DNA of 64,000 nt from an uncultured Gemmataceae bacterium (GTDB lineage: Bacteria; Planctomycetota; Planctomycetia; Gemmatales; Gemmataceae). Location: contig CAVVPN010000003.1 in the NCBI GenBank assembly GCA_963750165.1, positions 736,001 to 800,000 on the forward strand. Reading direction: 5' to 3'. Positions 980 to 63,511 of this stretch are shown here, one piece after another. The position numbers and the translations under genes are program-made. The stretch's first letter is position 1, and every line of letters begins with the position of its first letter. Under the pieces are notes generated by a model, which searched no databases, was not told where the DNA came from, and saw only the letters and a list, made by a program, of their open reading frames with translations.

Positions 980-1852
980 ATGGTCCGCACACTGAGTTTG
1001 CTGGTGATGGCCGCGGCGGCGCTCGCGCCGGCGCTGGGCGAAGCCCAGCAGCCCCGTCCCGTCGGCGCGGCCCGCGAAGTGGAGCTGGAACTGGTCGGCG
1101 GTGCCCGGTTGAAGCTGATGCGCATTGACCCGGGCAAGTTCGTCATGGGGTCCACGGCAGACGCCGGTGCGCCGCCGCACGAGGTGGCGATCACAAAACC
1201 GTTCTACATGAGCGTCTACCTGGTGACGCAGAACCAGTACCGCATGGTCATGGGCACAAACCCCAGCGGCTTTTCCGCACAGGGGAACCGCGCGAAGGCG
1301 GTGGCGGGGCTGGACACCCGCGACTTCCCGGTGGAGCGGGTGCTCTGGGACGACGCGATGGCGTTCTGCAAGCGCGCCTCGGAGTCGTCCGCATTGAAGG
1401 CGCGCGGTTGGGTGGTGGACCTGCCGACGGAAGCGGAGTGGGAATACGCCTGCCGGGCGGGCACGACAACGGAATTCCATTACGGCCCCGCCCTGTCTTC
1501 CGCGCAGGCGAATTTCAACGGCTTCCATCCTCACGGGGGGGCGCCGCAGGGGCCGCACCTGCAGCGGACCACGAAGGTGGGGTCATACCGCCCCAACGCC
1601 TGGGGGTTGTATGACATGCATGGCAACATCAACCAGTGGTGCAAGGACTGGTTCGACGACAACTACTACAAGGTCAGTCCCAAACAGGATCCGCAGGGCC
1701 CGGCCCAGGGCGCGAAGCACAGCATGCGCGGCGGCACCTTTAGCGACGGCGCGTATGCCTGCCGATCCGCCTTCCGCAACTGGGGCGCGCCGGATGTCCG
1801 CTATGAGGGCCACGGCTTTCGGGTGGTTGTGCGGGTGACGCCGCCGCATTGA
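980..1852 (+). CDS. Secreted FGE-sulfatase/SUMF1 domain protein, paralog 2
   Basis: GGAGG RBS and ATG at 980; same motifs (LPTEAEWEYACRAG, NAWGLYDMHGN, GFRVV); clear tandem duplicate of the upstream gene. Confidence 0.9.
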   Translation: MVRTLSLLVMAAAALAPALGEAQQPRPVGAAREVELELVGGARLKLMRIDPGKFVMGSTADAGAPPHEVAITKPFYMSVYLVTQNQYRMVMGTNPSGFSAQGNRAKAVAGLDTRDFPVERVLWDDAMAFCKRASESSALKARGWVVDLPTEAEWEYACRAGTTTEFHYGPALSSAQANFNGFHPHGGAPQGPHLQRTTKVGSYRPNAWGLYDMHGNINQWCKDWFDDNYYKVSPKQDPQGPAQGAKHSMRGGTFSDGAYACRSAFRNWGAPDVRYEGHGFRVVVRVTPPH

Positions 1853-50742: not shown

Positions 50743-52592
50743 ATGACGCCATCGTTGTCGCGGCGCGACCTGTTCAAGCTCATGACCGCCGGCGGCGTCG
50801 CCGCTCTGCCAGTTCCCTTCGCCCAGGCCAACTGGCGGCAACCGCCCGGCTGGGTCGTCGGCAACATGACCGGCGCCGAGGCCCTCGTCGAGGCGCTGCT
50901 CGCGGAGGGCACCTGCTGCGTTTTTGGCATCCCCGGCGCCCAGCAGAACGAACTGTGGGACACCATCAAGAGCAAACACCTGCCGTATCTGCTCGTCACT
51001 CACGAGTTCTCCGCGGCGGGGATGGCCGACGGCTACGCCCGGGTCACCGGCCGGCCGGGCGTCCTCTGCGTCGTGCCCGGCCCCGGCCTGACCAACTCGC
51101 TGTCCGGCCTCGGCGAAGCCCTGCTCGACAGCGTACCGGTGGTGTGCGTCGTCGGCGATGTCGCGGTCGGCCCCCACGCCCATGCCTTCCAGGTCCACGC
51201 GCTGCCGCAGGCCGACCTGCTGCGACCGGTCACCAAGGAAGTGATCGTCGTGCAGCACGCCGGCCAGATCGCCGACGCGGTGCGGCAGGCGTTCCGCCTC
51301 GCCTGCTGCGGCGAACCGGGACCGGTCGGCGTCGTCGTGCCGTACAACTTCCTCATTGAGACGCAGCGCTACAACAGCGGCCCGCTCGAACCGTGCCCGC
51401 TGCCGTGGGACGAGGCCGCTTTCCAGCGAGCGCTGGCGCTGCTCGCCAACCAGCGGCTGCGCGTCGGCATCTACGCCGGCTGGGGCTGCATGAATTACGC
51501 GCCGGCGCTGGTGCATGTCGCGGAGATGCTGCAGGCGCCGGTCGCCACCAGCATGATGGGCAAGGGCGCCTTCCCGGAGAACCATCCGCTGTCGGTCGGC
51601 TGGGGTTACGGGCCGCAGGGCACGCGCGCCGCCGAGCAGGCCTTTCGCCACGTTGATGTCGTGCTGGCCCTCGGCGTCAAGTACAGCGAGGTGTCCACCG
51701 GCTTCTACTCGCAACCGCAGACGCGCCATCTTATCCAGGTGGACATCAACCCGCACAACCTCGGCCGCGTCATGCGCACTGACGTGTGCGTCAACGCTGA
51801 CGCCGGGCTGTTCCTGCAGCACCTCGAAGGCCAGGCCAGCTGTCTGCGGCGGCCGGGCGACCGCCACCTGGTCGAAGCCATCGCCCGGCACAAGGCGGAC
51901 GACCTGCGCCAGTACCAGGCGGTGTTCGCGACACCGTGCGGTGTTGATCCAATGGCGTTCATCCTGGCGCTGCGGCGGCACACGGCGCCGGACGCGCTGA
52001 CGTTTGTGGACGTGACCTGTTCGCAGTACTGGGCGACCGAGGCGTACACCACCGTGCAGCCGCGGACGTTCTTCAACCCGACCAACAACCAGGCGATGGG
52101 CTGGTCGATCCCGGCGGCGCTGGGGGCGCAGATGGCGTTCCCGAGCCGGCAGACGGTGACGATCACCGGCGATGGCTGCTTTTTGATGTCGGCGATGGAG
52201 ATTTCCACGGCGGCGCGGCGCACCTGCCGGTGAAGTTTTTTATCCTCGACGACCAGGCGTATCACTACATGCAGCTGCTGCAACGGCCGGCGTACCTGCG
52301 GACGACGGCGACGATCCTGACGCGGCTGGACTACCGGGCGCTGTCGCAGGGCTGGGGCGTGGCGTACCAGGAAATTGCCTGTGCGGCGGACCTGGAGCCG
52401 GTGATTTGTGGGGCGCTGCAGTACGCGGGGCCGGTGCTGGTGCGCGTGGTCACGGATTACCGGCGCCGGCCGATCCGCTGGATCAACGCCGCCCGCGCCC
52501 GGTACACGCAGGAGCTGACCACCGAGCAGAAGGTGCGCTTCCTGGCCCGCATCGGTTCGCGGTCGCTGGACTTCCACCCCAACAACGACTGA
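50743..52592 (+). CDS. Thiamine-diphosphate-dependent enzyme (acetolactate synthase large-subunit-like) with Tat signal; frameshift near 52222
   Basis: SRRDLFK; FGIPG, HE..A..MADGYAR, PGPG.TN, MGW.IPAALG, GDGCFLM; C-terminus in ORF 52230..52592. Confidence 0.85.
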
Positions 52593-55202: not shown

Positions 55203-55274
55203 GCGGAGCGCGCTAAACCGCAAGCGGCAGACGTGGGCACTTCCGATCACGGGAAACCCTTCGAGAACCGGGCG

Positions 55275-57784
55275 ATGGCGGTCCCTCTGAAAACATCGGT
55301 GCGCTTCTTCAACCCAACCGGCCCCGACCGCTGCGCCCGGGTGACGATCCAGCCGGCGGCCGACCGCGAATTCCTCGTCATTCAGATCGAGCGCGGCACC
55401 AGGGCCACCTTGCTCAAGCACCACGAGACGCTCGGGCCGTACGCGCCGGATCAGGTGCAGGCCGCCATGAATGAGGCCGTCGCCGATTTGCGCGGGCAGG
55501 GTTTTCTGGAGGCGGGCATCGAGGCCCTGTTGCGCGGCCTGGAACACGAGGACGCCATCGTCCGCGGCCGCGCCGCCGAGAAACTCGGCTGGCGCCGCGC
55601 CCGCGACACGGTCGAAAATCTGCTGGCACTGCTGCCGCAGGCGTCGGAGGAGACGTGTCTCATCCTCGACGCCCTCGGCCGCATCGGCGACCCGGCCGCC
55701 GTCCCCAGCGTCCGTGCCTACGCCACGCGCAAACTGCTGTCGCGGCGCCGCTCCGCCGTCGAGGCGCTGCGCAACCTCAACGACGGCCCCGGCCTGGCCG
55801 AGGCGCGGACGCTGGCCCTGGAGCGGCTGCCGCAGTCCATCCGCGATCTGGTGGAAGAGCCCGGCACCACGGCGGCGCAACTGGCGCAGCAGGTCAACCT
55901 GCTCGACGCGCTGCAACTGAGCCTGGCGCTGGACACGCTGTATGAACTGGCGACGCCGGCGTGTATCGGTGCGGTGCGTGAGGTGCTGGACAAGACCACG
56001 TTCGACCGCGAACACCTGTGGCGTGCGACCAAAAGCATTTACAAGCGTGCCCTGCTCCGCCAGGATTTTGTGGCGTTCGGCTGGCTCAGCCACGCCATCG
56101 AGGCGCGCGGCCGCGTCTCCAAGGGCGCGATCGCCACGGTGAAATCCGGCCTGGACGGCGTGACACGCAAGACGCGCATCTTCGGCCGCAACACCCAGGA
56201 TTACCTGCGTCGCCTGGCCTGGCGGTATCTGCGCAACCTGGCCCGGTATCGGCCCGAGGACTACGCCGCCGCCGCCGCCGAGGCCATTATCCCATACACG
56301 CCGCAGGAGGCCGCCGGCCGCACGCGCGCCACCGGCTTCGCTGGTCTCTACCTGCTACACCGCGTTTTGCTCGACAAGAGCACGCGCTTCCACTTCGCCG
56401 GCCGCGAAATGCGCTTCCGCCTCAAGAGCGCCAAACTCAACAAGGTGACGCCCTCCACGCACGAGGAAGCGTTTGAGGAACTGTGGGAGGCACGGCCGCG
56501 GGCGTACCTGCGCGTGCTGACCGCGGCGAAGCTGGTGGACGCCCACGAGTTCGCCCTGCGCGGCCTGATGCCGAAACATCACGCCGTCGTCCGCGCTGCC
56601 GATGACGCCGAGATCATCGCCTTGCTCGACGCCCCGTATGAGCCGACGGTGCAACTCGGCGTCACCGAACTGGAGCGGCGCTTCGACCCGGAACACCCCA
56701 ACTGGGATCTGCTCCAGCGCTTGCTCGCGGACGAGCGCCCGTTGCCGCGCGAGCTGGGGCAGCGCTGGCTGGCGCAGACCGCGCCGCTGTGGCGCGCGAC
56801 CCGGAGCGCATCCTGTTGTTTTTGCGGCTGGCGCACCCCAAGGCGCGCGGCGCCGTCATCGACGCGGCCAGGGCACGGCTGGCAGCGGACAAGCCGCTGC
56901 GGCAGGTGCTGGCGAAGATGGTGCTGACGAGCCTGCAAGCTCCGGAGTCGGCGCCCGGCATTCATGACGCGCTGGCCCGCCTGGCGGTCGAGGTACTGGC
57001 GGCGGAGATGAGCACGCAGTTGAGCGTCGCCCAGTTGATCGGCTGGATCACCAGCGGCACGCCACACGTCAAGGTGCTCGCCGGCCGGCTGCTCGGCATC
57101 CACCCCGACGCGGTGCGCGAACTGGGGCTCGAACGGCTAACAGCGCTGGCGCAGCACGAGGTCGCCGCGGTGCGCGAGGCGGGTTTCGCGCTGCTGCGCT
57201 CCGCGAAGGACCAGTTGCAGCAGGATCCGTCCGTGTTGTTCGTGCTGATCGAGAGCGAGTGGGACGACGCCCGCACGCTGGCGTTCGAGTTACTGAAGTC
57301 GCTGGACCCGGTGGCGCTCGGCCTGGACGGCGTGATGGGCCTGCTTGACTCCAACCGTGTCGATGTGCAGAACACCGGCATGGAACTGGCGAAGCAAAAC
57401 TTCGACATTTACTCGCCGGAAAAGCTGGTCGAGCGTCTGGTGGAGCATCCGCACCAGAACATGCGCCGCTTCGCCCTGGAACTGGTGACCAAGCACCTGC
57501 CGCCGGGCACTGATCCGCTGGCGCGGCTGAAAGCATTTTGCCGGGCCGCCCTCTTCGACCTGTGGCCGCAGCGCAAGGTCAAGCAAGGGCTCATCGACTT
57601 CCTGACGCAGCGCGGCCTGGAGGACGCCGGGCAAGCGCAGGTGGTGGCGACGATCCTCGGCGACGTGGTGCGCGTGCAGGGGCGAGCGGATTTTGAGCAG
57701 GCGTTGACGGCACTGGTGCGGTTGAAGCTGGCGTACCCGGACCTGGAAACCACGGTGACGCTGCCGGCGGGAGGTGGGGTGTGA
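55275..57784 (+). CDS. WGR-like N-terminal domain + HEAT/ARM-repeat protein (retron-associated); frameshift near 56791
   Basis: N-terminal domain ends ...AVADLRGQGF as in WGR domains; HEAT repeats (VRGRAAEKLG, ILDALGRIGD, AVREAG, MRRFAL); ORFs 55233..56927 and 56789..57784 join if one G is added at tggcgcgcgac. Confidence 0.75.
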
Positions 57785-59515
57785 TCGTACAGATGGAGTA
57801 CAGCGGCCGCAGCGCCATCCTCAACGGCCTGCACGACGCCCGCGTGCAGTTCGCCACCAACACGCGCCGCGATCCGACGTTCTTCCGCGGCGAACTCGCC
57901 CAGCCGGTCCTGTTCCGCGAGGCGCTGGCGGCCCTGTATCACGTCGTCGTCAGCGACTACAAGTATCGGCCGCGCGACCGCCTGGAGTTCAAGGCGTGGC
58001 TGGAGGAGCAGGACAAGATTTTCCTGGCCAACCTCGGCATGAAGAGCGCCAAGGCCAAGACCCGCCTCGCCGAGTTGCAGACGCAACTGGATCTGCTCAA
58101 TCAGGCAAAGCGCGAGCGGCTGCGGCCGTTCCACGACGCCCGCCAGGATTATTTCCAGTTCGTCTACGAGAACGAGTACGAGGAGGAGTACCTCTTCGAT
58201 CCGGTCATCACCGTGCATCCGGACGAGGTGTCGTTTGAAGCGTTCTCGCGCGATGAGAGCACTTACGGGCGGCTGGCGGCGAAATACGAGTTGTTCCGCA
58301 AGGTCGATGAGTTCCAGTGCGGCACCACCAACATCGACTTCAGCGCGAAGCTGCACGGCGAGTTGGAGCGCATCCGCTCCTATCGGCAGACGCGCTTCGA
58401 CATCGCGCCGGCCGGCTTCACCGTCGTCAGCGACGGCGGCAGCCACCGTGAGAAGAAGATCGACCTGCCGGACAGCTGGATCATGGGCTTTTTGCAGGTC
58501 CACAGCACGATGTCGATGGGCCTGACGCGCTTCCACATGGCGCCGGTGGACCTGTACAACATCTGCCGTTACCTGCGCCGCCGCAAGACGCGGAAATCGC
58601 CGCGGGCGCTGCGCTACGAGTTCACGCCGGGCCAGCCAGTGCGGGCCGTGCTGGAGCCGTGGAACCATGTGATCGAACTGACCGCCGCGTCGCCGGTCCT
58701 GGGCGGCGCCCCGCTGGCGCTGGCGGACACGGCCGGGGCCGTCTACCAGGGCCCGAAACCCGTGACCATCCGCACGTGGGGCCGCGACCGTCTGCTGACC
58801 ATCGCCCGACTGCTGCCGGCGTGCCGGCGCGTGGACGTGTACCTGGCCGGGCAGGGGCTGCCGAGCATTTACGTCCTCGACCTGGGGCCGGTGACGTTCA
58901 CGCTGGCGCTGTCTGGCTGGACCGACAACGACTGGACCGGCGGTGCCAAGTTCGACCTGCTGGCCCGCCGCCTCCTGGTCAGCGCCACGGAGTTGAGCCA
59001 GACCTACGACGCGCCTGCGCAAGGAGCGCTACGCCACCGACGGGGCGCTGGCCAACGCGACCGGCCTCGGCGTGGAGAAGTGCCGCAGTGCGCTGTCGTA
59101 CCTGTGCCAGGTGGGCCGGGCGATGTACGACCTGGGCGGCAGCGTCTACCGGCACCGCGATTTGTTCCCGGAGCCGTTCACGGTCAAGGCCGCGGTCGCC
59201 GCCGCCAAGGCCCCCGCGGCGCCGACCAACCCGCAGGAAAAAGCGGCCCTGGCGATCTTCGAGAACGACGACGTGCGGCTCACATCGCGGCGGCCGGTCG
59301 AAACCGGCTACAAGTTGACCGGCAGCGCCAAGGGCGCCGACCAGGTGCGCGTGCGGCCGCTGCTGCACGTCGATCACGAGGGCAAGGTCATTGAAGCGAC
59401 GTGTACGTGTCCGTACTTCAAGAAGCACCAGCTGACGAAGGGGCCGTGCGAGCACATTCTGGCGCTGCGGTTGGCGCACATGAGCAAACTGGAAACGGAG
59501 GACAGCGCCAGTTGA
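57781..59515 (+). CDS. SWIM zinc-finger domain protein (retron-associated); frameshift near 59014
   Basis: GTGA overlap with upstream gene; DPVITVHPDEVSFEAFSRDESTY; C-terminal CxC-x12-CxH (ATCTCPYFKKHQLTKGPCEHILA) in ORF 59072..59515. Confidence 0.85.
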
Positions 59516-59766
59516 CGTTCCCGGCGGGCGGCGGTCCCGGCTGCGTTTAGCCATCAGTCTGGCGCTACGCCAGGCGGGCCGAAGTGTCTGCCATTCGTCA
59601 TGAACCCGGTCGTCACCCAGCGGCGATAATCGCTGTACCGCCGCTGCTGGGTCGAGTCCGCCGGACTCCGCGGCGGGACAGCGATTATCGCCGCCTTCAG
59701 TGGACCGGGCTCATCCGCAGGGAGTACGTAAACGCCGCGGGCCGTCGGCCGCCGGGAAACGTCAAC
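59511..59766 (+). ncRNA. Putative retron msr-msd unit 1
   Basis: Terminal IR gttgacgttcccggcgg...gcgttta / taaacgc...ccgccgggaaacgtcaac; candidate branch G at 59550 (TTTAG); msr hairpin gtctggcg-cta-cgccaggc; msd stem 59620-59694. Confidence 0.8.
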
Positions 59767-59798
59767 GAAATGCTGGAGGAAAGATGCCGAATTAACAG

Positions 59799-60046
59799 TG
59801 ACGTTCTCGGGGTGGTGGCCCCGGCCGCGTTTAGCCGTGGTGCGGCGTTACGCCGCGCGGGCCGCAGCGTCTGCCATCCGTCCTGGGCCCGGTCGGCACC
59901 CAGGTGCGCACGCCCTACCGGTGCGTGCTGCTGGGTTGGGTCCGCCGGACCCCACGCACACCGGTAGGGCGTGCGCACCTTTCAGTGGACCGCGCCCATC
60001 CCGGAGTGTACGTAAGCGCCGCGGGCCACCGTCCCGAGGAACGTCA
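59799..60046 (+). ncRNA. Putative retron msr-msd unit 2
   Basis: IR tgacgttctcggg...gcgttta / taagcgc...cccgaggaacgtca; candidate branch G 59834; msd stem 59902-59980. Confidence 0.8.
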
Positions 60047-60083
60047 ACGCAGTCGCAGGAAGGAAGGTCGCATTCCCAAAACT

Positions 60084-60327
60084 CGTTCCCGGCGGGCGGC
60101 GGCCCCGGCCGCGTTTAGCCATCCGTGCGGTGTTACGCCGCGCTGGCCGAAGTGTCCGCCATTCGTCATGGGCCCGGTCGGCACATCACGGAATTCACCT
60201 AGATGAGTTCCGCTGCTGGGTCAGGCCCTCCGGTCCTCGCGGAACGCATCTAGGTGAATTCCGCTTAAGTGGACCGAGCCCATCCGAGAGTGACGTAAGC
60301 GCCGCGGGTCGCCACCCGCCGGGAACG
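60084..60327 (+). ncRNA. Putative retron msr-msd unit 3
   Basis: IR cgttcccggcggg...gcgttta / taagcgc...cccgccgggaacg; candidate branch G 60118; msd stem 60189-60263. Confidence 0.8.
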
Positions 60328-60344
60328 TGCAACCGAGGTCAGCG

Positions 60345-60600
60345 TGAGGAGGTTTTCGGAGGGCGGCGGTCCCGGCCACGTTTAGCCATCTGTGCGGCGT
60401 TACGCCGTGCCGGCCGCAGTGTCCGCCATTCGTCCTGAGCCTGTTCGGCACCCGGCGGCCCGGGCATACTGGAGGCCAGCTGCTGGGTTGAGTCCGCCGG
60501 ACTCCGCAGGCCGCCAGTATGCCCGGGCCGCCTTCAGTGGAACAGGCACAGCCGTGATTGACGTAAACACCGTGGGCCGCCGTCCCCCGAAATGTCCTCA
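60345..60600 (+). ncRNA. Putative retron msr-msd unit 4
   Basis: IR tgagga..tttcgg.gggcggcgg...gttta / taaac...ccgccgtcc.ccgaaa..tcctca; candidate branch G 60385; msd stem 60454-60532. Confidence 0.78.
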
Positions 60601-60607
60601 ATAAATC

Positions 60608-60696
60608 GGCGAGCGGCGCGGCGTCAGCCCGCCGGTTCCGCAAGCGCCACCGGCGCCTTTTCTTATGAGGTGGACGAGGGCGCCGCGCCGCTCGCC
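60608..60696. repeat. Degenerate REP family B copy inside the retron locus
   Basis: Left arm intact; right arm has GGCTGA replaced by ~25 unrelated nt. Confidence 0.75.
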
Positions 60697-60712
60697 TTCT
60701 GTTGGAAACGCC

Positions 60713-62065
60713 ATGTCGCCGCTCACCCTGTTCTGGTTCCTGCTCGGCGACGCCACCGCCATCGAAGCGGTCGCGGTCGATCCGTGGGCGCCGCGGGTCG
60801 GCCTGGCGCTGGCGGCGACGACGGGGCTGGCGCGGCATTACGACAGCAAGGATCTGCTGCGGCAGCCGAGGTTCCTGGCGCTGCCGGCCGTCACCGCGGT
60901 GGCGCTGGCGACGCTGCTGTTCGGCCTGCTCTGCCTGGTGTTGCTGATGAAGGGCCGGACGTTGCCGCCGGACTCCGCGGGGTATCAGTCGTTCCTGGGA
61001 ATGTTCCTCTGCACCGCGCCGCTGGCCTGGCTGTACGCCCTTCCGTACCAGCGCTTCCTGAGCCTGGGGGCGACGGTGCGGGCCAAGCTGGCGACGCTGG
61101 GACTGGTCGCCGCCTGGCGCGTGGCGATCCTGGCCCGGGCGCTGACGGTGGTGCTGCACGACCCCACGGCCGGGTCGCTGTGCTTCGTGCTGATGGTCGC
61201 CGACGCGGTCGCCCTGGTGGCGCTGGTGGTGACCAGCAACCCGAGCGATGCCCGCTCCACGCCGCGCGTGGTCAGCGTCATGGGCGGCATCGGGCCATAC
61301 GTCACCAACAAGAAACAGGATGACTTCGCCCACCGGACGGCCGTGACTGTGGGCTGTCTTGGCGTCGTGCTCCTGCCCTTGTGCGTGATGGGCGTGAGCG
61401 CCGCGCCGCTGCCCACGGCTCACTGGCGGGCCTTGCTCGCCGGCGCCGCCCCGACTGCCCCGCCGGCGCCGGCCGTCTGGTGGCTCGCCGGCCTGGCGGC
61501 GCTGGTGTTCCTGGGCCTGGGTTGCTGGACGCAACCGTCCCAGTGGCGGCGCGGCCGTTTCGAGGCGTGGCTGCGGTCGGGAAGGATCACGGAGGCATTG
61601 ACGGACCTGTCGGTGCGCGGCCTGACGGCCTTCCCGCCGCACTGGCAGCCGCCGCCGACCGCCGACTTCCGCGAACCGCCCGGACTGCCCGCGGTGGTCC
61701 GGGCGGCGCTGGAGCCGGCGGTCGCACCGTGGGTGCGCGCCATTTACCTGGAACGGTTCGAGCGTTACCTGAGCCAGCCGCTGTGGTTCTGGCCCTATGA
61801 CGACGAACTCGGCCAGGTGATCGCCGTGCTGCGGCAACTGCCCGATGGCCAGGCCCTCGCCGCTCGGGTGCTGGACGCAGGCGCACAGGTGGAAGATTTT
61901 CTGAAGAAAAACGAAGAGATGGTGCGGAAACTGGAAGGACAGGGCGACCGCCCCGGGATTTCTCTCGTCCAACCGGAGCCGAAAATCACCGAGCAGCGCC
62001 CGGCCCTCCTCGCCGCGCTGGCCGACCTGGCCGGGCGCGGCGATCACCAGCGAGAAACCGCATGA
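60713..62065 (+). CDS. Multi-pass membrane protein with C-terminal soluble domain, translationally coupled to the RT
   Basis: About 7 hydrophobic segments in the first ~280 aa; its TGA overlaps the RT ATG (ATGA at 62062-62065). Confidence 0.8.
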   Translation: MSPLTLFWFLLGDATAIEAVAVDPWAPRVGLALAATTGLARHYDSKDLLRQPRFLALPAVTAVALATLLFGLLCLVLLMKGRTLPPDSAGYQSFLGMFLCTAPLAWLYALPYQRFLSLGATVRAKLATLGLVAAWRVAILARALTVVLHDPTAGSLCFVLMVADAVALVALVVTSNPSDARSTPRVVSVMGGIGPYVTNKKQDDFAHRTAVTVGCLGVVLLPLCVMGVSAAPLPTAHWRALLAGAAPTAPPAPAVWWLAGLAALVFLGLGCWTQPSQWRRGRFEAWLRSGRITEALTDLSVRGLTAFPPHWQPPPTADFREPPGLPAVVRAALEPAVAPWVRAIYLERFERYLSQPLWFWPYDDELGQVIAVLRQLPDGQALAARVLDAGAQVEDFLKKNEEMVRKLEGQGDRPGISLVQPEPKITEQRPALLAALADLAGRGDHQRETA

Positions 62066-63450
62066 GCACCGAGAACGAGAAGGCCAAACTGTACCGCGAG
62101 ATCGTCCAGCAGACCAACGACAAGGTGCTGCTGGAGCGCATGCGGCTGCACGGCTTCTGGGGCCGCGAGCCGCTGCCGCAGGACCCCGCCGAGGAGGGGG
62201 CGCAGCGTGCCGCCATCGAAAAGGAAATGGCCGATCTGCGCAAGGCGAATTCCCTGGTGAAGAACCCGCAGAAGGCGCTGGCAGCGGAGCGCAAGCGGCG
62301 CTGGGAGGAGAGCAAGAAGCGCCGCGCCGAGAACAAGAAGTTGCGCGCCGCCGAGCAAAAGCAGCGGGCCGAGAAGTATGCGGCGTATCGCACCACCACC
62401 ATCGTCCACGCCGGCGCCGGCGTCAGCGGCGGCCTGCAGAACACTGACACGAACGAGCCGCTGCTGACCGAGCGCGGCCTGCCAGTGGTGCGCGACGGGG
62501 CGGAACTGGCCGCCGCGCTGGGCATCAAGCTGAGCGCCCTGCGCTGGCTGACGTACCACCGCCGCGGCGCCACGGTGGTGCACTACCACCGCTTCGAGAT
62601 CGCGAAGAAGACCGGCGGCGTCCGCTGCATCTCGGCGCCCAAGCCGGCGCTGGCCCACGCCCAGCGCTGGGTCCTCGACAACATCCTGGCGAAGCTCGAA
62701 GTGGAACCGCAAGCGCACGGCTTCGTACCGGGCCGCTCCATCGTCAGCAACGCGACGCCGCACGTCGGCCGGCAAATCGTCCTCAACCTCGACCTGCGCG
62801 ACTTCTTCCCGTCGATCACGTTCCGCCGCGTCAAGGGGCTGTTCCATTCCTTCGGCTACAGCGAACACGTAGGGACCGTGCTGGCGCTGCTGACGACGGA
62901 GCCGCCGCGCGTGCCGGCCGCCGTGGACGGCAAACTCTACTACGTGGCGCTGGGCGAGCGCATCTTACCGCAGGGGGCGTGTACGAGCCCGGCACTGACG
63001 AACGCGCTGTGCTGGCGGCTGGATCGGCGGTTGACCGGCCTGGCGAAACGGCACGAGTTCCAGTACACGCGCTACGCCGACGACCTGACGTTTTCGGGCG
63101 ACAACGCCGCGGCGGTCGGCAAACTGCTGCGGAGCGTGCGGGCGATTTTGCTGACGGAGGGCTTCACGGAGCAGCCGACCAAGACGCGGGTGATGCGGCG
63201 CTCGAACCGGCAGGAGGTGACGGGCGTGACGGTGAACACGCGGCCGAAGGTGTGCCGCGAGGACCTGCGGACGCTGCGGGCCATCCTGCACAACGCGGCG
63301 AAACACGGGCTGGAGAGTCAGAACCGCGACCAGCGGCCGGACTTCGCGGCGTACCTGCGCGGCAAGGTGGCGTACGCGTGCATGGTCGATCCGGAGCGGG
63401 CGGCGGACTGGCGCGGGCGGCTGGCGAAGGCGCTGGGCCAGTCGTCGTAG
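62062..63450 (+). CDS. Retron-type reverse transcriptase with long charged N-terminal extension
   Basis: KKTGGVRCISAP, AHGF, region X NATPH, DLRDFFPSI, LPQGACTSPALTN, YTRYADDLTFSG, region Y QEVTGVTVN; no maturase or endonuclease domain. Confidence 0.95.
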   Translation: MSTENEKAKLYREIVQQTNDKVLLERMRLHGFWGREPLPQDPAEEGAQRAAIEKEMADLRKANSLVKNPQKALAAERKRRWEESKKRRAENKKLRAAEQKQRAEKYAAYRTTTIVHAGAGVSGGLQNTDTNEPLLTERGLPVVRDGAELAAALGIKLSALRWLTYHRRGATVVHYHRFEIAKKTGGVRCISAPKPALAHAQRWVLDNILAKLEVEPQAHGFVPGRSIVSNATPHVGRQIVLNLDLRDFFPSITFRRVKGLFHSFGYSEHVGTVLALLTTEPPRVPAAVDGKLYYVALGERILPQGACTSPALTNALCWRLDRRLTGLAKRHEFQYTRYADDLTFSGDNAAAVGKLLRSVRAILLTEGFTEQPTKTRVMRRSNRQEVTGVTVNTRPKVCREDLRTLRAILHNAAKHGLESQNRDQRPDFAAYLRGKVAYACMVDPERAADWRGRLAKALGQSS

Positions 63451-63461
63451 GAGCCGCCGGA

Positions 63462-63511
63462 CCACCAGCGACCCGTTGACGTTTCGCGAAACGTCAACGG
63501 GTCGCTGGTGG
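63462..63511. repeat. Perfect 50-bp palindrome between convergent genes (terminator or REP)
   Basis: ccaccagcgacccgttgacgtttcg|cgaaacgtcaacgggtcgctggtgg. Confidence 0.85.

Follow-up and report, generated by a model that had tools for sequence, protein, structure and literature searches.

The window, the 64,000-nucleotide stretch analysed here from an uncultured Gemmataceae bacterium, encodes a WGR/HEAT-repeat protein, a SWIM protein, four non-coding RNA units, a predicted membrane protein and a reverse transcriptase (RT; Table 1). The SWIM gene is followed by the four-unit array and then, 1.5 kb further on, by the RT, and the WGR/HEAT-repeat gene sits upstream of the SWIM gene, as in type XIII retrons. 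RT_XIII is the top model for the RT among 54 PADLOC models. The protein has a long N-terminus, with the RVT_1 domain starting at residue 180, and carries YADD (338), VTG (386; region Y) and NATPH (230; region X, NAxxH). Its nearest relatives are in records titled Gemmatales or Planctomycetota, and a single distant relative was found in viral contigs. The SWIM gene encodes the CxCx12CxH motif. Thus, by every feature that can be tested in the sequence, the locus is a type XIII retron.

Table 1. Positions of the features of the retron locus and of related units and pieces (window numbering unless a locus is named).
Feature	Position	Strand	Details
WGR/HEAT-repeat accessory gene	55233..57784	+	PADLOC WGR_XIII, E 6e-57 and 6e-44; two frames, break near 56800
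SWIM accessory gene	57781..59515	+	PADLOC SWIM_XIII, E 1e-145 and 2e-32; two frames, break near 59015
ncRNA unit 1	59511..59766	+	predicted branch G 59550; arms 59620-59644 / 59670-59694
Unit 1 perfect arms	59620-59636 / 59678-59694		17 bp
Unit 1 predicted msDNA	59728 to about 59586	minus	143 nt
ncRNA unit 2	59797..60046	+	predicted branch G 59834; predicted msDNA 144 nt, 3' end near 59869
Unit 2 perfect arms	59902-59923 / 59959-59980		22 bp
ncRNA unit 3	60084..60327	+	predicted branch G 60118; arms 60189-60213 / 60239-60263; predicted msDNA 142 nt, 3' end near 60154
Unit 3 perfect arms	60189-60205 / 60247-60263		17 bp
ncRNA unit 4	60354..60592	+	predicted branch G 60385; predicted msDNA 143 nt, 3' end near 60421
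Unit 4 perfect arms	60454-60472 / 60514-60532		19 bp
41-nt piece of unit 4	60421..60461	+	two further genome copies, 40/41 each; matches predicted msDNA 3' end
Predicted membrane-protein ORF, between array and RT	60665..62065	+	no Pfam, PADLOC or NCBIfam match
Type XIII retron RT, intact	62062..63450	+	462 aa; PADLOC RT_XIII, E 2.2e-166
Short piece near predicted msDNA 3' end, second genome	L017:12189-12243	minus	
Short piece near predicted msDNA 3' end, third genome	L217, about 1500-1526		
Multi-unit loci			window (4); L042 (3); L003, L017, L188 (2, in tandem); L186, L187 (2, flanking the SWIM gene, not in tandem)

Among retron groups, type XIII is the oldest known. It corresponds to RT clade 10 and includes Retron-Mxa1/Mx162, Mxa2/Mx65, Sau1/Sa163 and Nex2/Ne144 (Mestre et al. 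2020, PMC7736814); PMC13712802 is a further source for comparison. The window locus shares with the retrons described in the main text of PMC7736814 the RT family, the SWIM and WGR/HEAT genes, the msr-msd anatomy and a predicted msDNA of 142-144 nt. Unlike them, it has four template genes per RT, and its accessory genes are frameshifted in this assembly. The terms 'tandem' and 'multiple ncRNA' are absent from that main text, and our literature search found no functional study of type XIII anti-phage defence.

The membrane-protein ORF between the array and the RT is probably a passenger; among the 191 loci examined it lies beside the RT in the window alone, and its homologues are unnamed Planctomycetota clusters. 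A promoter scan found no sigma-70-like site, an Rfam scan of the array gave chance hairpin matches alone (best E 0.04), and no close relative with the same array was found among 301 genomes of the class. The RT stop codon is followed by a perfect 25-bp hairpin (63462-63511), and 3' of unit 4 there is a GC-rich inverted repeat (60608-60696), one arm of which recurs elsewhere in the genome in a REP-like manner. The unit 2 arm has some resemblance to REP sequence and may be REP-like in origin. The host genome (G000) encodes another retron RT, 45% identical, accompanied by a SWIM gene (C11:2295755-2299000), where four profiles and a hairpin scan detected no ncRNA unit. Neither an ncRNA unit nor a SWIM gene was detected in the flanks retrieved for close relatives of the RT (61-73%) in four other loci (L004, L106, L121, L182).

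The array comprises four diverged repeats (59511-60592) spaced 267-285 nt apart, with scaffolds that are 77-84% identical. Each unit folds like an msr-msd RNA: a long a1/a2 stem closes it, TTTAGC supplies the predicted branch G, and it contains a short msr hairpin as well as a long stem (fold z -8.9 for unit 1); an A·G mismatch near the stem top is common to units 1, 3 and 4. TAGC is the commonest retron priming context (PMC6868368). The hairpins are the msd stems of a retron, as the sequence-only reading had claimed. When the arms are removed from 36 group A scaffolds, a FastTree phylogeny places the four units in one clade (support 0.999), and they therefore arose by local duplication.

The copies could be redundant duplicates in a decaying locus, with neutral stem differences and a defence function that has possibly been lost. 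Consistent with decay, both accessory genes occupy two frames in the window and are whole in the nearest relative (L003), where the WGR/HEAT gene is one ORF; a foreign ORF separates the array from the RT; and arrays are sporadic, with more than one unit in 7 of the 130 loci with units (a lower bound, because many loci are short; 6 of 70 among long-flank loci other than the window). Against it, the RT is intact, and the branch G context, the closing stem and the perfect arms are kept in all four units. A frame change also divides the gene for an unrelated TPP enzyme 3 kb upstream (50743-52592), and frameshifts occur in 2 of about 35 other host entries. Since other host genes are split too, assembly indels are plausible for the accessory genes, whose splits would reflect either assembly error or real decay. 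We regard a decaying locus as an unlikely explanation of the array.

According to the sequence-only reading, the four stems have perfect arms that are unrelated between units, and each carries its own palindromic sites, which may form a panel of baits. The description of the arms holds. Four perfect arm pairs of 17, 22, 17 and 19 bp lie where they were reported, with the quoted motifs in them, and lengthen to about 25-27 bp if one mismatch or small bulge is allowed. Core identity between arms is 0.29-0.56, compared with 0.44 ± 0.08 in shuffled arms, and both arms have been altered together, retaining pairing and not sequence.

That each stem carries a palindromic site beyond chance is not confirmed. 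Relative to mono-/dinucleotide shuffles of the arms, the four perfect arms contain six 4-mer palindromes (5.6/7.2 expected), four 6-mers (1.5/1.8 expected, P 0.060/0.085) and two 8-mers (0.4 expected, P 0.055/0.062), and the number of arms with at least one 8-mer gives P 0.043/0.050. For 6- and 8-mers in the extended arms P is 0.12-0.40, and nothing attains 0.09. Exact palindromes of 4, 6 or 8 nt are absent from the perfect arm of unit 1, where GCGAT-A-ATCGC is a spaced inverted repeat. Thus, the excess in the window is at most borderline, in a sample picked by eye. Spaced inverted repeats inside the arms are mildly in excess (sum 20 versus 15.9, P 0.023). The four arm 6-mers rank 28, 48, 52 and 64 of 64 in palindrome avoidance by the host and are not avoided ones, which fits ordinary host sequence and also a bait that spares host enzymes; we weigh it for neither. 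The host genome strongly avoids some 6-mer palindromes (GTCGAC at 0.01, GTGCAC at 0.09 and GAGCTC at 0.12 of expected).

The same question was asked of homologous stems. Profile searches of 191 sampled loci (including three host loci and the window) identified full units in 130, amounting to 140 units, 127 of them distinct. Perfect arms of at least 15 nt were present in 93 units, and 71 arms were left after dereplication at 80%; the test set comprised 13 group A and 50 group B arms from loci other than the window and left out the four window arms and four others. Palindromes are not enriched in these 63 dereplicated arms, and on palindrome frequency the refuting test set by the sequence-only reading thus goes against the panel. 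Group A has 6 6-mers (5.1/7.0 expected) and 1 8-mer (1.4/1.9 expected), and group B has 19 6-mers (25.6/26.5 expected) and 5 8-mers (7.0/7.3 expected). Any 4-mer palindrome occurs in 47 group B arms versus 42.8 expected (P 0.04), mostly as a conserved terminal GGCC, and no palindrome longer than 4 nt is repeated in more than 4 of the 71 arms.

Unrelated stems are a family-wide property, single-copy type XIII retrons being equally unrelated at the same scaffold distance. Between group A loci, stem-core identity is 0.47-0.48 at 62-80% scaffold identity (0.48 ± 0.09 in the 125 pairs at 75-80%) and 0.56 ± 0.14 at 80-85% (28 pairs); in group B it is still 0.64 at scaffold identities of at least 95%. 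The window cores fall below the matching between-locus mean in five of six pairs, which are non-independent, and therefore some diversifying selection is possible. Among the other multi-unit loci, L042 (11349-12119), in a record titled Helarchaeota, has its three tandem units downstream of the RT. The two units of L017 (4699-5349) have identical scaffolds over the compared 110 nt and eight compensated arm changes, and each copy seemingly has its own upstream region.

A panel in which each stem is a different palindromic bait for phage methyltransferases, nucleases or dimeric DNA-binding proteins has a precedent in Retron-Sen2, which is activated by one methylated GATC in its msDNA (10.64898/2026.10.13.758329). 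The borderline 6- and 8-mer counts of the window (P 0.04-0.09), the somewhat greater than average divergence of its stems and the spaced inverted repeats, also in excess in group B (268 versus 238.7), are consistent with such a panel. Against these stand the unenriched family arms, with group B 6-mers under expectation and longer palindromes that rarely recur, the equal variability of single-copy loci, the unit 1 arm that has no exact palindrome, the four predicted msDNAs with 0 GATC, and a spaced symmetry that continues into unpaired flanks. We therefore consider the bait panel quite unlikely.

What the family does conserve is the form of the stem. Of the 120 group A and B units, 109 have extended arms of 21-28 nt. 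The 90 dereplicated stems examined have 2183 Watson-Crick pairs and 2 G·U pairs, and A·C accounts for 21 of the 47 other mismatches; the score that delimited the arms rewards Watson-Crick pairs and has no preference for A·C above G·U. The 21 A·C against 2 G·U show that pairing is selected on the DNA strand, as an A·C becomes a G·T wobble in the DNA copy.

The stems also encode a second fold: the 5' arm forms pairs within itself, and pairing between the upstream flank and the apical loop extends the structure. Core shuffles give a Stouffer z of -3.2 for the window (n = 4), -3.4 for group A (n = 21) and -13.5 for group B (n = 61); with arms dereplicated at 60% core identity, group B still gives -4 to -6. 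Among 23 disjoint related pairs, 22 keep the second fold better under their real substitutions than under substitutions of the same types placed at random; the number is 20 for the core alone and 21 on the DNA strand, and two alternative nulls give 23 and 21. Self-folding of the arm by itself is not enriched in the 21 group A arms outside the window (mean z -0.13). In a 45-row alignment in which registers shift, column covariation is weak (62% paired, 6/500 shuffles) and pair-type covariation measures are not above shuffle. The second fold is likely a folding intermediate. It is the reason for the spaced symmetry that the sequence-only reading had seen in units 1-3, and because this symmetry reaches unpaired flanks it suits a fold more than a duplex site. 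Family arms are enriched in words that contain TA (GTAC, CTAG), although strict dereplication leaves a weak enrichment (z 1.1-2.1); TA steps are enriched near the arm centre, and GA/TC and AA/TT are depleted.

Conservation of the second fold, on the DNA strand included, and the clustering of group B TA steps at the arm centre would also fit selection for a branched msDNA, cruciform or four-way-junction-like, that baits junction-resolving or recombination enzymes. However, the long rod-like stem is more stable than the second fold, by 15-21 kcal/mol overall and about 15-18 kcal/mol in DNA, the mismatch spectrum is that of selection on the long duplex, and there is no strand asymmetry in group B that would locate the second fold on the sense or antisense strand (34/61, p 0.11). 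The fold may be a mere intermediate of transcription or reverse transcription, and a branched product seems improbable.

That the arms are guides pairing with phage, plasmid or host sequences, as a variable segment inside a constant scaffold might suggest, is hardly credible, as the arms are locked in perfect duplex and no credible target was found: the host genome has no match with 0-1 mismatch and slightly more 2-mismatch matches than 12 shuffles (3, 0, 1 and 2 versus 0.5, 0.1, 0.4 and 0.6), phage matches have E 1-4, the best plasmid match has E 0.02 at 78%, and the unit 2 arm, the one scanned against IMG/VR, has no exact match there. The phages of this host are probably absent from the searched collections.

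A stem held to its length and pairing could be recognized by its shape, and the SWIM protein is a candidate partner. Because the window gene is frameshifted, we modelled the L003 homologue (about 75% identical), folded with 75 homologues. The model (pLDDT 83, pTM 0.79) consists of a PCNA-like clamp pair and the SWIM domain. Foldseek matches it to PCNA (E 4e-10, TM 0.62-0.77 by target length, 8-13% identity) and likewise to viral PCNAs; by sequence, the SWIM profile has a best E of 0.12 against the PDB. Thus, the SWIM protein of the nearest relative is predicted to have a PCNA-like two-domain fold. Its conserved arginines include R46, R267/268, R338 and R344. Sliding clamps grip duplex DNA without reading its sequence, and such a fold would account for a stem that is fixed in length and pairing and free in sequence. 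The predicted fold need not imply a ring or binding of this DNA. The accessory protein is described as DEDE/winged-helix/SWIM in PMC7736814, in contrast to the PCNA-like fold predicted here.

Pieces resembling msDNA ends occur away from the array. The 41-nt piece of unit 4 begins at the predicted end of the 143-nt msDNA and ends 8 nt into the stem, and its further copies (G000 C11:1126036-1126076 and C12:304059-304099) score 70.7 bits versus 36-42 for 20 shuffled arrays. They lie directly 3' of the stop codon of an HNH-like gene, between two such genes, the second of which alone has a Pfam HNH_3 match. The two sites share 302 nt and therefore possibly represent one event. The C11 copy is near a tRNA-Leu-like sequence. 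Pieces in two other genomes (G339, G333) begin within about 3 nt of the same predicted msDNA boundary. Altogether, 3 genomes had such pieces among the 12 that were searched with a unit of their own or one at least 93% identical, and there are besides weak matches in G331, G333 and G347. In G339, L229:1501-1546 is the reverse complement of the unit 1 loop and arm of L017, running into the sense-strand flank; this piece, an insertion that sits between iron ABC transporter genes, switches strand across the inverted repeat. The Ne160 repeats are a precedent for such pieces (PMC6868368). Those repeats reportedly carry the msDNA 3' end. The off-locus pieces may be an indirect sign of reverse transcription, with recombination at the DNA level as the alternative.

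Several known systems resemble parts of the locus. By analogy, the closest working counterpart of the array is the UG27 RT arrays (bioRxiv 10.64898/2026.09.22.753630), which share one RT, a constant scaffold and a variable central hairpin. UG27 units are copied into short hairpin DNAs, for which that report found no phage or host complementarity. They differ in RT class, in being mostly phage-encoded, in requiring three proteins and in their priming motifs, and the UG27 array was shown experimentally, whereas the window array is known from sequence. We rejected a UG27 identity for the window, as its RT is of retron type XIII and not of the UG27 class with two required accessory ORFs. Retron-Nex1 (Ne160) shares a natural msr-msd duplication and off-locus msDNA-like pieces (PMC6868368, citing Lampson and Rice 1997); its repeats, as described there, have no RT within a kilobase, whereas here four complete units stand in an operon. 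With Retron-Sen2 and other methylation-triggered type II retrons the locus shares an msDNA stem as a possible sensor. Their trigger is one GATC contacted by the RcaT effector, and the retron locus has neither. A type II identity was rejected on that lack of GATC and on six neighbouring ORFs with no match to an RcaT-type effector model. Retron arrays are known as an engineered design (PMC10370050). Our literature search, with supplements outside its scope, found no paper on natural template arrays of type XIII or other retrons, on a second msd fold or cruciform msDNA, or on a retron clamp.

Taken together, we consider it fairly probable that each of the four hairpins is the variable stem of one of four tandem template genes for a single type XIII RT, with palindromes at about chance level and a duplex that is likely read by its shape. 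The units were duplicated locally, and their stems diverged as in single-copy loci of the family. From retron biology, the RT would prime at the G of TTTAGC and copy each unit into a DNA of about 143 nt. Statistically, there is constraint on the length of the stem, on its pairing as DNA and on the second fold that yields the spaced symmetry. Retron-Eco1 is tolerant of sequence change in its equivalent stem (PMC11754653). The SWIM partner, with its predicted clamp fold, would likely grip the 25-bp duplex without reading it, and, by analogy, phage DNA-handling proteins that cut, coat or unload the complex would trigger defence. The extra copies would likely provide dose or redundancy and not a coded panel of sites. 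Stem differences may broaden the range that is sensed, a weaker form of the panel idea. More tentatively, and doubtful as a whole, the locus could be a natural multiplexed retron, with four hairpin DNAs made by one RT, a PCNA-like ring threaded on each, the second fold as a loading or folding switch, stems that tune which phage proteins are sensed, and a product occasionally pasted into the chromosome.

The idea of a palindrome panel itself contributes little. The locus is a natural experiment, with four templates for one RT that differ mainly in one stem, and it narrows the targets for testing, in that length, pairing at the DNA level and the second fold are conserved and sequence and palindromes are not. 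Natural template arrays are relevant to multiplexed retron engineering. If it is true that a clamp-like protein grips the msDNA, this would add a new mode of DNA holding to retron biology.
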